IMG/VR virus record: IMGVR_UViG_3300032005_000008
Span: 1-47,053 of that record
Length of the DNA: 47,053 nt
DNA from: a virus
Strand: one strand, 5' to 3'
The position numbers and the translations under genes were made by a program. A model generated the notes under the pieces. The model was not told the origin of the DNA. It ran no database searches and saw nothing but the letters and a program-made list of their open reading frames with translations. Of this stretch, positions 2,823-8,637 are shown piece by piece; position 1 is the first letter of the stretch; every line of letters starts with the position of its first letter.

Positions 2823-3914
2823 TCAAGGCTTTACCAGCCTTAGATACCCCTCCTGTAGCACCGCTGGATTCTCGCTGTAGCGAGATTGTGACAAGCCCAT
2901 ATCGAGAACACTGACGGCATTTCGTACCCTGGCCGGTGCAAGATGCGCGTACTTCTCGGTCATCTGGATTGTCGAATGTCCCAGCAAATCACGAATCTCA
3001 ATGAGCGGCACGCCGGCGGACACCAGCCATGCTGCACACGTATGACGCAAGTCATGGATCGTGAAGTCTGTTATTCCTGCCTTTATACAAGCGTTATCGA
3101 AACCCGTTGAAGGGTCGGCCACTCTTGCCCCGTTTTTCCTCGTAAATACCCATGGCGTTGTTGGGCAATATTCTGCCCGAACAGCCATCCTTCCTTTAAG
3201 TGCAGCCAAAGCCCCTTCATTAAGCGGGATACTTCTTCGCTTCGCGGCTTTGGTGTGCTCCCCGTCCAGATATATCAGCCGGTTGGCAAAATCGACCCGG
3301 CGCCATTCCAACCCCAGCATTTCCTCTTTCCGACAGCCAGTGTTCACGGCCAGCCGGATAAAGTCCTCGAGCATGTCACCGAATCGCTGCTTTCTCACAA
3401 TCCGACACAGGCCGTCGACCTCTGCCCGGGTGATCCAGCGGACCCGACCCTCTGGCTCCTTCAGCTTTCGACCCTTGACCGGGTTCGGCAGCTTCCATTC
3501 CAGTTCCGTCACGCACCAGTTGATAGCGGCGGACAGCGCCGCCAGTTCGCGGTTGATGGTGGCCGACGACTTGCCGGCCTCCGTCCTGGTCGCCGAGTAT
3601 TCCCGCACGTCCTTTCCCGAAAGCTCGTTCATCATCATCCCGGCGAAGTGCCGCTGCAGCGACTTGACCCTGAACTGAGTGGTCGCGAAGCTTTTCTGCG
3701 ATGAAGCGGCATTGCCCAGGTACTGGACCATGACTTCCTCGAACGTCCTCGGCGGATCCACGCCCAATTCCTTCTGGCGCCAGGCCGCGCCGCGATGCTC
3801 CTGCTCTATGGCCTTGGCTGCTGCGTAGTCCTCGGTGCCAGCAGAGCGTCTAACGTACGTGCCATCTGCTGCGGTGAAACTGATCCACCAAGTTTTACCT
3901 CTTTTATAGGGCAT
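2823..3914 (-). CDS. int: tyrosine recombinase / phage integrase
   Basis: The C-terminal catalytic region HDLRHTCAAWLVSAGVPLIEIRDLLGHSTIQMTEKYAHL is present. It lies adjacent to the tRNA-derived core. Confidence 0.95.
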   Translation of the reverse strand: MPYKRGKTWWISFTAADGTYVRRSAGTEDYAAAKAIEQEHRGAAWRQKELGVDPPRTFEEVMVQYLGNAASSQKSFATTQFRVKSLQRHFAGMMMNELSGKDVREYSATRTEAGKSSATINRELAALSAAINWCVTELEWKLPNPVKGRKLKEPEGRVRWITRAEVDGLCRIVRKQRFGDMLEDFIRLAVNTGCRKEEMLGLEWRRVDFANRLIYLDGEHTKAAKRRSIPLNEGALAALKGRMAVRAEYCPTTPWVFTRKNGARVADPSTGFDNACIKAGITDFTIHDLRHTCAAWLVSAGVPLIEIRDLLGHSTIQMTEKYAHLAPARVRNAVSVLDMGLSQSRYSENPAVLQEGYLRLVKP

Positions 3915-5448: not shown

Positions 5449-5522
5449 GACATCACCACTGCAACAGAGAAGAAGATAGCGCCCCAGAGGCAGGCGCTTA
5501 TGGCTGCGGCTTTGAGCATCAT
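5445..5522 (-). CDS. 25-aa hydrophobic micro-protein (MMLKAAAISACLWGAIFFSVAVVMS)
   Basis: ATGA overlaps with both neighbouring genes. One predicted TM helix. Confidence 0.35.
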   Translation of the reverse strand: MMLKAAAISACLWGAIFFSVAVVMS

Positions 5523-6046
5523 GGGGTCACCTGCTGATTTTTGATTTGAGTTCGAAGAGCTGCTGCTGCATTCGCAGCGCACTGGATGTCGGCGTGGTAT
5601 CCGCCGTAGTGGACTTTCTTTTTCGCCCTGACCTGGACGAACCATCGTTCTTTCCTGCCGTCCCAATACACGCCACGAACACCGCTAGCCCCTCTTCCCG
5701 GCCCACTTGAAGCGGAGGCGAGGCGATATGCTTGGTTCTCTGCGTATGTCGCAAGGCGCAAGTTCTGCCAACGGTTGTCATCGCGCACAGCGTTTCGGTG
5801 ATCGACGTGCATGTCTGCCGGTGGATAGCTGCCGGTCATGTACAGCCACGCCAGACGGTGGGCTTGATGCTTGGTTCCATCAATCGAGATCTTCACGTAG
5901 CCGTCTTTGTCGAACTGCCCGACCTTCGGTCGGCGCCGTCCTAGATGCTTGAATTGTCCGGTGTCCGGGTCATACACCACTTTTTCCAGCAGGCGTGCGT
6001 GCGTGAGTTGGCGCGTTTTCATGGGCGCACTCATCCTTGCCGCCAT
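5519..6046 (-). CDS. HNH homing endonuclease with C-terminal AP2-like DNA-binding domain
   Basis: HRLAWLYMTG...VDHRN....DNRWQNLRLAT..EN matches an HNH_3 pattern. GVRGVYWDGRKERWFVQVRAKKKVHYGGY is AP2-like. The start is uncertain (6046 or 6022). Confidence 0.85.
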   Translation of the reverse strand: MAARMSAPMKTRQLTHARLLEKVVYDPDTGQFKHLGRRRPKVGQFDKDGYVKISIDGTKHQAHRLAWLYMTGSYPPADMHVDHRNAVRDDNRWQNLRLATYAENQAYRLASASSGPGRGASGVRGVYWDGRKERWFVQVRAKKKVHYGGYHADIQCAANAAAALRTQIKNQQVTP

Positions 6047-6072: not shown

Positions 6073-6525
6073 TTACTGGATCGCGGTGGCTTCGAGCGCT
6101 TCGTCGATCTCTGGATATTCAGGGCGAGCCGGCGGATAGGCGGGAGCCTTCATCGCCTGATCGATGGCGTCGCGAAGGTTCTCGCTGTAGTTCTCGCCGA
6201 TGACGCGCTCGCTTGGCTTGTCCATCCAGTGACCGACGATCTCGATGCTGACGCTGCTGTCGCCGGCATCGCCGTTTGGGCTGCTGTCGAAGCGCACGTC
6301 CCAGCAATTGGACTCCAGCGCATCCAGCCGGGCTTTGTCGCGCACCAGCTCATCAACCCGCTGATCCTGCACTGTGAGGCGCTGCTGTAGGGCTTGTTCG
6401 CGGCGTTCAGCAGCTAGGCAGCGCTCAGCTGCGTCGAGGAAGCACCGGGCGGCGTTGTCGAAGTCGCTGGCGTACACATATTCGCCGGCCGCACCTTTGA
6501 ATCTGTAACGCTTCACGCTTTCCAT
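6073..6525 (-). CDS. hypothetical protein
   Basis: 150-aa acidic ORF with a coiled-coil centre. Confidence 0.6.
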   Translation of the reverse strand: MESVKRYRFKGAAGEYVYASDFDNAARCFLDAAERCLAAERREQALQQRLTVQDQRVDELVRDKARLDALESNCWDVRFDSSPNGDAGDSSVSIEIVGHWMDKPSERVIGENYSENLRDAIDQAMKAPAYPPARPEYPEIDEALEATAIQ

Positions 6526-6614
6526 ACACCCTCCTGGGGCTTAACGCTGAATTTGTAGGCGACATAGGGAGCAGCTGCATTGAGAGCCAGAACGCCGATC
6601 AGAAGCCAGATCAT
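6513..6614 (-). CDS. 33-aa hydrophobic micro-protein (MIWLLIGVLALNAAAPYVAYKF...)
   Basis: ATGA overlap with the DUF4406 gene stop, and its 3' end overlaps the next start. Confidence 0.3.
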   Translation of the reverse strand: MIWLLIGVLALNAAAPYVAYKFSVKPQEGVWKA

Positions 6615-6943
6615 GCGACCTCCTGAGATACCAGGTCGTGGGCGTTAACAACCGCCATGCCGAGGCGTTCAGCGATGTGTGCTTCAAGGCGTGCGCCTTT
6701 CGAGGTGTGCCAGCCGGGTAGCAGGGCCACGGTGTCGCACTCCATGAGCGCTGCAATATCTCGCCGCATGCAGTCGTTCCAGCTACCGCCGTCAGGGTTC
6801 AGCTCGGCGGGATTGGTGACGGTGTGTCCCGCTGCGCGCAGTTGAGCGGTCATCGCGTGGAAGGTTGGGAAGTTCAGTTCGGGCATGTCGGTCATGGGAC
6901 CGCTGAGGTAAATTTTTTTCACAGAGAGACCTTGCCAGGGCAT
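6611..6943 (-). CDS. DUF4406 protein (nucleoside 2-deoxyribosyltransferase-like superfamily)
   Basis: KIYLSGPMT....NF..F......L...GH.V.NPAE.......W..CMR.DI..L..CD.V.LL.GW..S.GA..E matches the DUF4406 pattern. An alternative GTG start lies at 6922. Confidence 0.7.
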   Translation of the reverse strand: MPWQGLSVKKIYLSGPMTDMPELNFPTFHAMTAQLRAAGHTVTNPAELNPDGGSWNDCMRRDIAALMECDTVALLPGWHTSKGARLEAHIAERLGMAVVNAHDLVSQEVA

Positions 6944-6966
6944 GCCCGGGCGGTGGAGTGGGGGAG

Positions 6967-7692
6967 TTACAAGGCCATTTCGGCTTGAGTTTCTCGCTGC
7001 CAGATCGGGCTGCTGTTGTGGGCCTCGATGCGATCGGCTATGACGTTGGCGCGCTGGCCGGCGGTGGGCGGGGCATACATGCCGAACCGGCTGATGCTGC
7101 CGCCGTTGATTGCTGCGTTCGTGGAATCAGCCGAGGCTAATGGCAGGTGCTGGAATATGGCGGGATCGAGCATCCGCAACCCGTGTAGCCGGCACATCGG
7201 TCGGCCCTGGTCGTCACAGACAGCGTCCATCGCGGCGCCCATCCGCTTCCACCATGATCCAGTGCCCGGTGTAGCCCATTGCCCAGAACTGCCCAGGGCA
7301 ACCGTACGCCAGCACCTCGCCAGCCGCTGCAAGCGTTCAAGCGATTCGTGCAAGTGCCAAACAGGAACACCGCGAAGCTCCTCTGGCCACTGCCGGACAA
7401 GGTCATCGTTGGCCTCTTCGTCGCCGTCGATGATGTCGGGGATGAGCGCCCAGGTGAATCCAGGGTGTCGGTGCCAATCTTCAACCCAACGCGTGTATCC
7501 ATCGACGTCTACCTGGCCGCCCTTCTGCCACGCTGTGAAAGCCCCGTTGTCGAAAACAAACGATTTGCATACCTCGGCGACAATCCCGAGATCGTCCTTG
7601 CGCGGGAACGGCACCAGCGCGTGCCGGCCAGCCAGGAACTTCGCGGCATCTTCGCGCTTACCGCCGACAGGCGTGCCGTGGTAATGAATCAT
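6967..7692 (-). CDS. hypothetical protein, possibly a TGT/DpdA-like base-exchange enzyme
   Basis: Three ordered motifs resemble archaeal TGT/DpdA: FVFDNGAF (compare TDSGxxQ), CRLHGLRML (compare HLxGxG) and LASADSTNAAINGG (compare FDSAxY...G). This rests on motif recall only. Confidence 0.4.
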   Translation of the reverse strand: MIHYHGTPVGGKREDAAKFLAGRHALVPFPRKDDLGIVAEVCKSFVFDNGAFTAWQKGGQVDVDGYTRWVEDWHRHPGFTWALIPDIIDGDEEANDDLVRQWPEELRGVPVWHLHESLERLQRLARCWRTVALGSSGQWATPGTGSWWKRMGAAMDAVCDDQGRPMCRLHGLRMLDPAIFQHLPLASADSTNAAINGGSISRFGMYAPPTAGQRANVIADRIEAHNSSPIWQRETQAEMAL

Positions 7693-7934
7693 CCATTGAG
7701 CCTCACTGTTTCGATTTCGAACCCTTGGTGCGTGGCGATGATGGTTTGATCGCCGCCCAGGGTCTCAGATAGCTGATCAGCGATCTGCTCATGCCAGCCA
7801 GTCTTAATGAGAGCGGTAGCCGTTTTGATGTGCTCGACGTGGATCATCGCCGGGGAGCGAACCTCCAGCTGGTAGACGATGGTTTCGCCATCCGCAGGGC
7901 AGACCGCTGCGAAGGTGTGCCGGTAAATATTCAT
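7689..7934 (-). CDS. hypothetical protein, possibly a QueF-like T-fold protein
   Basis: FAAVCPADGE..VYQLEV.....I.VEHIK......WHEQIADQL parallels QueF FTSLCPKTGQPD..I.I.Y......VESKS....FHED. It has a GAGGA RBS and an ATGA overlap with the downstream gene. Confidence 0.35.
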   Translation of the reverse strand: MNIYRHTFAAVCPADGETIVYQLEVRSPAMIHVEHIKTATALIKTGWHEQIADQLSETLGGDQTIIATHQGFEIETVRLNG

Positions 7935-8004: not shown

Positions 8005-8637
8005 TCAAGGCGTGTTGCTTGTTCCGCAGTTCCGGCAGTCTTCTCGATAGCGTTGCGCGTCACTGATGAACCGACCACAACCCTCGCAGTTGAACATCAT
8101 CATGCGTGGCGGCTTCGGCTTGACCAGCTTGATACCGGTACCTCGCAGAGCCTCCTTGATGTTCACGTCGTCGCGCTCAACCAGGCGGCGGGCGAACTTG
8201 TCAATGTAGGGCTTGGGCCAAACGACGGCGCCAGATTGGCCGAGCTTTCCGATCCATGTGACGGTGTGGGCTCGCGGCACTACGACAGATTTCGATAGGT
8301 CGCTTGTGAAAACGCCGTCCTCACAAAGCCAAATCAGGTTGTTGCCGTTCCAGCACTGCGGCTTCTGGATGTAGAACTCGGCTGCGTCAGGATGCTGGTC
8401 TAGCGCTTCGCTCAACGTCACATACTGGCAGTCGACACCAACACGCGCCCGGGCATCGACATAGGCCTTAGGCCACGGGATGTCGGTGTCGCGGTGATCG
8501 CAGGCGCCGTCCTTGGTGAAGACCTGCGCCTTATCCAGGTCGGTGACGTATCCGGAGCCGCTGAATCCCCAGAACGAAAGGCCGTCGCCCACGTACGCGT
8601 GACTGCGGCTGTCTTGAAGGTAGAACTGATCGTCCAT
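8005..8637 (-). CDS. hypothetical protein with internal duplication and C-terminal zinc ribbon
   Basis: GGAGA RBS. It contains two FY(L/I)Q...(V/F)T(D/S)L(D/S)K segments and CEGCGRF...CRNCG at the C-terminus. Confidence 0.7.
   Translation of the reverse strand: MDDQFYLQDSRSHAYVGDGLSFWGFSGSGYVTDLDKAQVFTKDGACDHRDTDIPWPKAYVDARARVGVDCQYVTLSEALDQHPDAAEFYIQKPQCWNGNNLIWLCEDGVFTSDLSKSVVVPRAHTVTWIGKLGQSGAVVWPKPYIDKFARRLVERDDVNIKEALRGTGIKLVKPKPPRMMMFNCEGCGRFISDAQRYREDCRNCGTSNTP

Follow-up and report, generated by a model that had tools for sequence, protein, structure and literature searches.

A mini QueF-like protein coupled to a DpdA-family homolog in a temperate Pseudomonas phage: a candidate two-gene 7-deazaguanine DNA-modification module

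The DNA analysed here is the 47,053-nucleotide (nt) stretch of IMG/VR virus record IMGVR_UViG_3300032005_000008 (positions 1 to 47,053, hereafter the window), which is laid out like a temperate Pseudomonas phage of the lambdoid type. Two adjacent genes in its early-left operon, encoding a mini QueF-like protein of 81 amino acids (aa) and a DpdA-family homolog of 241 aa, are best explained as a two-gene 7-deazaguanine DNA-modification module, a reading to which we assign a probability of roughly 55%. A preliminary description had proposed a module of three translationally linked genes, the third encoding a DUF4406 protein of 110 aa. The three open reading frames (ORFs) are indeed found on the minus strand with these lengths, and the locus is organized as follows.

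7934..7689, minus strand: mini QueF-like T-fold protein, 81 aa (from the ORF list and a reading of the sequence)
7692-7689, minus strand: ATGA overlap of the 81-aa stop with the 241-aa start (read from the sequence)
7692..6967, minus strand: DpdA-family (TGT-like) DNA guanine transglycosylase homolog, 241 aa
6943..6611, minus strand: DUF4406 protein, 110 aa

The 81-aa and 241-aa genes are translationally coupled, as stop and start overlap in ATGA, and the same overlap recurs in nearly all Pseudomonas loci. The linkage suggested for the third gene does not hold, since 23 nt separate the 241-aa stop from the DUF4406 start (44 nt if the true start is the GTG at 6922), and this gene is merely closely spaced. 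The early operon is full of overlapping genes, such as the DUF4406 gene, a 33-aa ORF and a 150-aa ORF, so tight packing alone is a weak guide to function.

On sequence grounds, the 241-aa protein can be placed among the DpdA-family homologs, in the “singleton DpdA” group, in agreement with the TGT/DpdA likeness first noted. It matches PHROG 887, “queuine tRNA-ribosyltransferase”, with E = 2e-66, and in BLASTP it is 36% identical to the DpdA that Salmonella phage 7-11 encodes (E = 7e-33) and 25% identical to the Seuratvirus (CAjan-type) DpdA (E = 1e-13), whose family is experimentally validated (Hutinet 2019, PMC6884629). The family of the 241-aa protein has more than 6,000 members. Sequence searches of Pfam, NCBIfam and PDB gave no match to the 241-aa protein, and HMMER retrieved no TGT or DpdA from PDB with this protein, with the DpdA-like subfamily profile or with Seuratvirus DpdA itself. 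The AlphaFold2 (AF2) model is a TIM (β/α)8 barrel of alternating β and α elements with a predicted local distance difference test score (pLDDT) of 86.8, and Foldseek matched it to TIM barrels including the Z. mobilis TGT (E = 8.6e-4), with TrpA scoring equally.

The three motifs on which the early assignment was based, FDNGAF with Asp48, HGLRML, and ADSTN with Asp189, are all present at the residue counts given. The D-x-G-A-F motif (D48-N-G-A-F52 here) does not vary across 53 homologs or when the 7-11 and Seuratvirus DpdAs are aligned, and D189 within S-A-D-S is likewise invariant in these homologs and aligns with C-D-S-S of Seuratvirus DpdA. Within the DpdA-like subfamily D86 never varies, but in the Seuratvirus enzyme the aligned Asp comes three residues later. 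In S. Montevideo DpdA, the catalytic features are D95 with the gating F99 (acid/base), D130 (base recognition), and D256 (nucleophile) (PMC10164549). D48/F52 and D189 probably correspond to D95/F99 and D256, and D86 possibly to D130; the match to D95/F99 was made by motif rather than by superposing structures, and the proposed roles are acid/base for Asp48 and nucleophile for Asp189. The structural zinc site CxCx2Cx22H is missing from the 241 residues, as it is from Seuratvirus DpdA1, and this site is thus a mark of TGT and bacterial DpdA rather than of phage DpdA.

The 81-aa protein is hypothetical in every database, and its PHROG, 37496, is labelled “function unknown”. Neither the protein nor an 83-member profile had a meaningful match in Pfam, NCBIfam or PDB, none of the 83 diverse members matched a Pfam family, and Pfam did not bear out “DUF3509”, the label that UniRef gives to one homolog. 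A word-indexed search found 232 relatives; among the 120 matches listed, all are at least 78% identical and those named by organism all belong to Pseudomonas. By an exhaustive HMMER search, the family comprises 354 clusters at 50% identity.

The AF2 model of the 81-aa protein is a ββααββ T-fold (DSSP: E2-11, E18-27, H33-45, H48-59, E62-69, E72-80). In Foldseek against PDB, its top 13 matches were all archaeosine synthase QueF-Like (5JYX/5K0P; probability ~1, template modelling score 0.54-0.59), followed by PTPS and GTP cyclohydrolase I, while matches among the viral models of BFVD comprised members of the family itself and a phage protein that carries the annotation “archaeosine synthase”. Conservation measured on 139 divergent representatives is highest at Tyr4 (1.00), Glu49 (1.00), His69 (1.00), Cys12 (0.99), Pro13 (0.99), and Glu34 (0.98), and Asn2, Tyr21, Asp53, Thr76, and Arg78 are further invariant polar residues. 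His48 is conserved at 0.83 with Gln in the remaining sequences, and position 47 is F, Y or W. A metagenomic homolog (P0114) has Tyr in place of Cys12, which might suggest that this Cys is dispensable, but the frequency of 0.99 discounts this.

A divergent mini-QueF branch (L091:2641-2895, L096, L097; hidden Markov model E ~1e-4 to 5e-6) keeps Cys-Pro and has Ser-Gln-Glu in place of Phe-His-Glu. Its genes still lie 29 nt upstream of a DpdA-like gene.

The relation of the 81-aa family to QueF was assessed with hhalign against a catalytic-core alignment built from 63 phage QueFs together with those of E. coli and V. cholerae. The score was 26.8 (P = 1.9e-4), and 24.9 over 76 aligned columns in a comparison limited to three sequences. 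None of 300 column-shuffled QueF alignments reached 26.8 (11.8 ± 2.8, maximum 22.9; ~5 standard deviations), and the reversed QueF alignment scored 10.7. Kinship to QueD/PTPS or to FolE instead of QueF was rejected, as the corresponding scores were 8.3 and 14.5. In the alignment to B. subtilis QueF, Phe8, Cys12-Pro13, and Gly16 fall on Phe51, Cys55-Pro56, and Gly59, Glu34 falls on Glu78, and (F/Y/W)47-His48-Glu49 falls on Phe95-His96-Glu97, of which His96 and Glu97 are presumably the preQ0-binding residues (preQ0, 7-cyano-7-deazaguanine). Cys12-Pro13 is accordingly the candidate thioimide site, and Trp47-His48-Glu49 the candidate preQ0-binding site, of the 81-aa protein.

The motif of QueF that binds reduced nicotinamide adenine dinucleotide phosphate (NADPH), E(S/L)K(S/A)hK(L/Y)(Y/F/W), is lost in the 81-aa family. 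Only its Glu (E34) stays, and the Lys positions are occupied by Ile (0.91) and Ala (0.57), which argues that the protein is not a QueF reductase. These results support a QueF-type T-fold without an NADPH site, most like archaeal QueF-Like and seen only by profile-profile and fold comparison, as the preliminary description had supposed. A 2023 survey in Nucleic Acids Research reports no phage QueF aligned with QueF-Like and has all of them retaining the NADPH motif. Since the phage QueFs of that survey are all reductases, the mini-QueF family falls outside what was catalogued; no description of such a family was found in the literature, and a mini QueF-like DpdA partner appears to be undescribed.

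The two genes are tightly associated. From the mini-QueF side, adjacency is obligate, with a DpdA-like gene directly adjoining the mini-QueF gene, usually overlapping it, in 23 of 23 sampled loci (15 genomic, five divergent viral, and three from the isolated phages Epa33, RHph_X2_30, and Mae-JY30), and both gene orders occur. From the DpdA side, a mini-QueF gene is found in 52 of 101 DpdA-like loci, on the same strand every time, and is missing from the enteric, Vibrio, 7-11, and Seuratvirus loci. No other neighbour in the window travels with the pair among these 101 related loci.

In relatives, genes of the 7-deazaguanine pathway either interleave with the pair or flank it. These include QueE (L058; E = 5e-24 to Seuratvirus QueE), QueD (L069/L079), and YhhQ/DUF165 preQ0 transporter genes (L060, L188, RHph_X2_30, and others). 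In addition, three proteins from outside the window (P0458, P0465, and P0502; 180-186 aa) join a truncated QueD/PTPS-like N-terminal domain, which has an HGH zinc motif and matches QueD by hhalign (P = 2.3e-4), to a C-terminal mini-QueF domain. These may be genuine fusions of two T-folds or else merged calls of adjacent genes, and no relatives of them were found in the viral collection. Together, the QueD, QueE, and YhhQ neighbours and the QueD-like fusions represent strong guilt-by-association with 7-deazaguanine chemistry.

C5-cytosine DNA methyltransferase genes directly flank the DpdA-like gene in several loci, including that of Epa33 (L001:4240-6330, L021:2095-3072, L051:2190-4004, L055:4743-6653, L102:4231-5313), and the early-operon slot looks like a hot spot for DNA modification or anti-restriction. 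In four Pseudomonas genome loci (L012-L015), the mini-QueF is ~80% identical to the window copy and the adjacent DpdA-like protein only ~53%, which suggests recombination between the two genes or very unequal evolutionary rates.

Pseudomonas possesses the full queuosine (Q) pathway. The window lacks detectable folE, queC, queD, queE, yhhQ, and queF genes (tblastn, best E = 0.07), in accordance with the absence of queC, queD, and queE reported before, and the precursor would be host-made preQ0, as the phage has no synthesis genes of its own. In the proposed mechanism, translational coupling would supply mini-QueF and DpdA in fixed proportion, and a minimal zinc-less DpdA would swap DNA guanine for a 7-deazaguanine base, with Asp189 as nucleophile and Asp48 as acid/base. 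Cys12 of mini-QueF would attack the preQ0 nitrile to form a covalent thioimide, with the His-Glu pair holding the base. Given the loss of the NADPH-binding motif, mini-QueF should be unable to reduce preQ0 to preQ1, and the thioimide would instead be resolved with ammonia or water in the manner of QueF-Like, giving archaeosine (dG+) or dADG, the deoxynucleoside of 7-amido-7-deazaguanine, rather than plain dPreQ0. The substrate, the product, and phage DNA as the target are what we infer from the observed homology, folds, and conserved motifs of the pair, and dG+, dADG or preQ0 capture could each be its output.

The closest parallel to the proposed tailoring step is archaeal QueF-Like (5JYX/5K0P; PMC5485725), which shares with the 81-aa protein the T-fold, a thioimide Cys (Cys21), and the absence of an NADPH motif, and works after a TGT-family enzyme has inserted preQ0. 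QueF-Like forms a thioimide with preQ0, and turnover with NH4+ occurs only on nucleic-acid-bound preQ0, in tRNA (PMC5485725). The two proteins differ in length (81 versus ~110 aa), have no direct sequence link, and differ in that the Asp at Cys+7 is not conserved in the 81-aa protein, which has an invariant His69 of its own; the partner is a DNA transglycosylase homolog in one case and a tRNA transglycosylase in the other. With bacterial and phage QueF (4F8B, 3BP1), the 81-aa family shares Cys-Pro, Glu78, and Phe-His-Glu in register across the catalytic core, but it has lost the NADPH motif, is half the size of unimodular QueF, and is missed by the Pfam QueF family.

Among DpdA systems, the singleton DpdA of Salmonella phage 7-11 resembles the window in its similar size, its D-x-G-A-F and S-A-D-S motifs, and its lack of preQ0 synthesis genes with reliance on the host pool. 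The window and about half of the subfamily differ from 7-11, BTP1, SfI, and the Vibrio phages in that the DpdA gene is translationally coupled with a QueF-like one. A temperate lambdoid phage that has a DpdA and no que genes is in itself nothing unusual: 76 DpdA-only phages have been described (Hutinet 2019, PMC6884629), and BTP1 and SfI carry DpdA homologs in the same ea-region slot. The bacterial Dpd system (DpdA/DpdB/DpdC; PMC10164549) offers a similar division of labour, as its transglycosylase inserts preQ0 into DNA and conversion to dADG falls to a second enzyme, DpdC. The window pair differs in having no DpdB ATPase, no zinc site, and no DpdA insertions, and its candidate tailoring enzyme is a T-fold, not DpdC.

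Several observations weigh against the modification module. For the 81-aa protein, HMMER provides no link from the family to QueF in Pfam or PDB, the hhalign probability for the match to the QueF core is 47%, the AF2 model is of moderate confidence (pLDDT 71), and its Foldseek E-values are weak, 2.5e-3 at best. Where QueF has its general-acid Asp (Asp62, Cys+7), the 81-aa protein has Ile19 in the alignment, and N/D15 is the closest conserved position with an acidic or amide side chain. Fold search was rejected as a means of telling DpdA apart, since TIM barrels such as TrpA score level with TGT. The partner is missing beside about half of the DpdA-like genes, among them every enteric, Vibrio, and 7-11 homolog, which implies that mini-QueF is not required for DpdA function, and for preQ0 inside double-stranded DNA, base flipping by the 81-aa protein would be needed. 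Phage 7-11, the sole DpdA-only phage of gamma-proteobacteria analysed, contained only ~0.02% dADG (Hutinet 2019, PMC6884629), and DNA modification by this DpdA subfamily is a prediction.

The main rival holds that mini-QueF does not tailor the base but captures host preQ0, binding it covalently and reversibly through Cys12, shielding it from the host QueF (reduction to preQ1) and TGT, and delivering it to DpdA, so that the DNA product would be plain dPreQ0. We consider this unlikely, although several features fit it well. With free preQ0, QueF-Like gives a stable thioimide that is not turned over (PMC5485725), the phage relies on a scarce host pool, coupling would fix the stoichiometry of the two proteins, and the genes that co-occur with the pair are supply-side ones (YhhQ transporter, QueD, QueE) rather than genes of other tailoring enzymes; a protein of 81 aa is also unlikely to flip bases in duplex DNA. 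On the other hand, the invariant polar residues beyond those for base binding (Asn2, Tyr4, Tyr21, Asp53, His69, Thr76, Arg78) suggest catalysis or nucleic-acid contact, a T-fold as substrate carrier is without precedent, and the phage DpdAs tested so far insert preQ0 unaided.

A larger module, with DUF4406 as an integral third component, was the original proposal and would involve, e.g., an N-glycosidase or deoxyribosyltransferase feeding DpdA with the 7-deazaguanine or guanine that it frees or exchanges. The DUF4406 assignment itself is sound (Pfam PF14359, E = 7.6e-29, 100.4 bits with a cut-off of 22; also PHROG 355), which by sequence places the protein in the nucleoside 2-deoxyribosyltransferase (NDT)/N-glycosidase superfamily, and a weak match to the CMP N-glycosidase MilB (4JEN) has the catalytic Glu aligned. 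Genes of two NDT families lie in or beside the pair, in the window and in four further loci where they abut the module (L048, L049, L098, L101), and NDT-like genes are more frequent with mini-QueF (9 of 52 loci) than without it (1 of 49; Fisher p = 0.016, uncorrected for relatedness of the loci). However, NDT-superfamily genes occur within 4 kb in only 10 of 101 loci, DUF4406 homologs are found in six, fewer than unrelated neighbours in synteny such as SSB (n = 10), and DUF4406 directly adjoins the pair only in the window, where it is not translationally coupled. DUF4406 is also present in 674 phage records, mostly from actinophages and many with hosts that lack a queuosine pathway, and Mycobacterium is without the Q pathway (Hutinet 2019, PMC6884629). 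Only two genes of the proposed three are thus conserved, a three-gene module is improbable, and DUF4406 is best seen as a facultative neighbour whose functional tie to the pair, if any, is loose, outside the conserved mechanism.

In E. coli K-12, queF lies directly upstream of ppnN, which encodes a nucleotide 5'-monophosphate nucleosidase (L103:10349-12673). This arrangement echoes the NDT-like and DUF4406 neighbours and would fit a three-gene module, but may be coincidence.

It is still less probable that the pair acts on host nucleic acid or metabolism (tRNA queuosine status, a preQ0 drain), or that the 81-aa protein is merely a structural or regulatory subunit of the TIM barrel, since, even though DpdA-only phages show little or no modification and the zinc subdomain and DNA-binding insertions of bacterial DpdA are missing, the closest characterised homologs are DNA transglycosylases, the validated phage DpdA1 likewise has no zinc motif, the near-invariant Cys-Pro and His-Glu favour genuine preQ0 chemistry, and the slot is rich in DNA methyltransferases.

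The window has a G+C content of 59%, and a near-identity DNA search found no close relative among phages. Its remaining landmarks are as follows.

2823-3914: integrase
minus strand: early operon with ERF, YqaJ exonuclease, and SSB
from ~27 kb: late genes

No promoter-like sites were found in the early operon, and terminator-like sites occur there only at chance number. Directly upstream of the mini-QueF gene, a 210-aa protein (8005-8637, minus strand; PHROG 2457, function unknown) ends in a C-terminal CxxC...CxxC zinc-ribbon-like tail and has homologs in none of the 101 related loci. Downstream of the DUF4406 gene, a hydrophobic 33-aa ORF (MIWLLIGVLALNAAAPYVAYKF...; 6512-6613, minus strand) is annotated as a gene on a 47-kb ENA metagenome contig that matches the window; its start overlaps the DUF4406 stop and its stop overlaps the start of the 150-aa ORF (6073-6525). 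The early operon also holds, just downstream of the module, an HNH_3 endonuclease gene (5519-6046, minus strand), probably of the homing type, and its product has a weak match to the AP2 DNA-binding domain (E = 4.6e-4, under the Pfam cut-off). The 210-aa zinc-ribbon protein, the 150-aa ORF, and the HNH endonuclease were rejected as module members, being present in 0 to 2 of the 101 loci.

7-Deazaguanine DNA modification shields phages from restriction enzymes and, in vitro, from CRISPR-Cas9 cleavage. DpdA-only phages are the largest group of DpdA-encoding phages, and their modification chemistry is not understood. The new element is an unannotated, widespread mini QueF-like partner of such “orphan” DpdAs, found in 354 clusters and representing the smallest QueF-type T-fold known. 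The annotation of the DpdA-like gene, for which databases now give “hypothetical protein” or “queuine tRNA-ribosyltransferase”, is corrected at the same time.

As a tentative generalization, somewhat more apt to fail than to hold, the 81-aa family may consist of minimal NADPH-independent QueF-type enzymes for DNA, which with a zinc-less DpdA make dG+ or dADG from host preQ0, or of covalent preQ0 “sponges”. The mini-QueF/DpdA pair offers a testable route to dG+/dADG or to efficient preQ0 scavenging in temperate phages, and Epa33, RHph_X2_30, and Mae-JY30 are cultured phages that carry it. If the proposal is true, the cassette would serve temperate phages that infect Pseudomonas, Rhizobium, cyanobacteria, and further hosts, either role would account for part of the enigmatic “DpdA-only” phage group, and the tailoring role would represent the first QueF-Like-type activity beyond Crenarchaeota.

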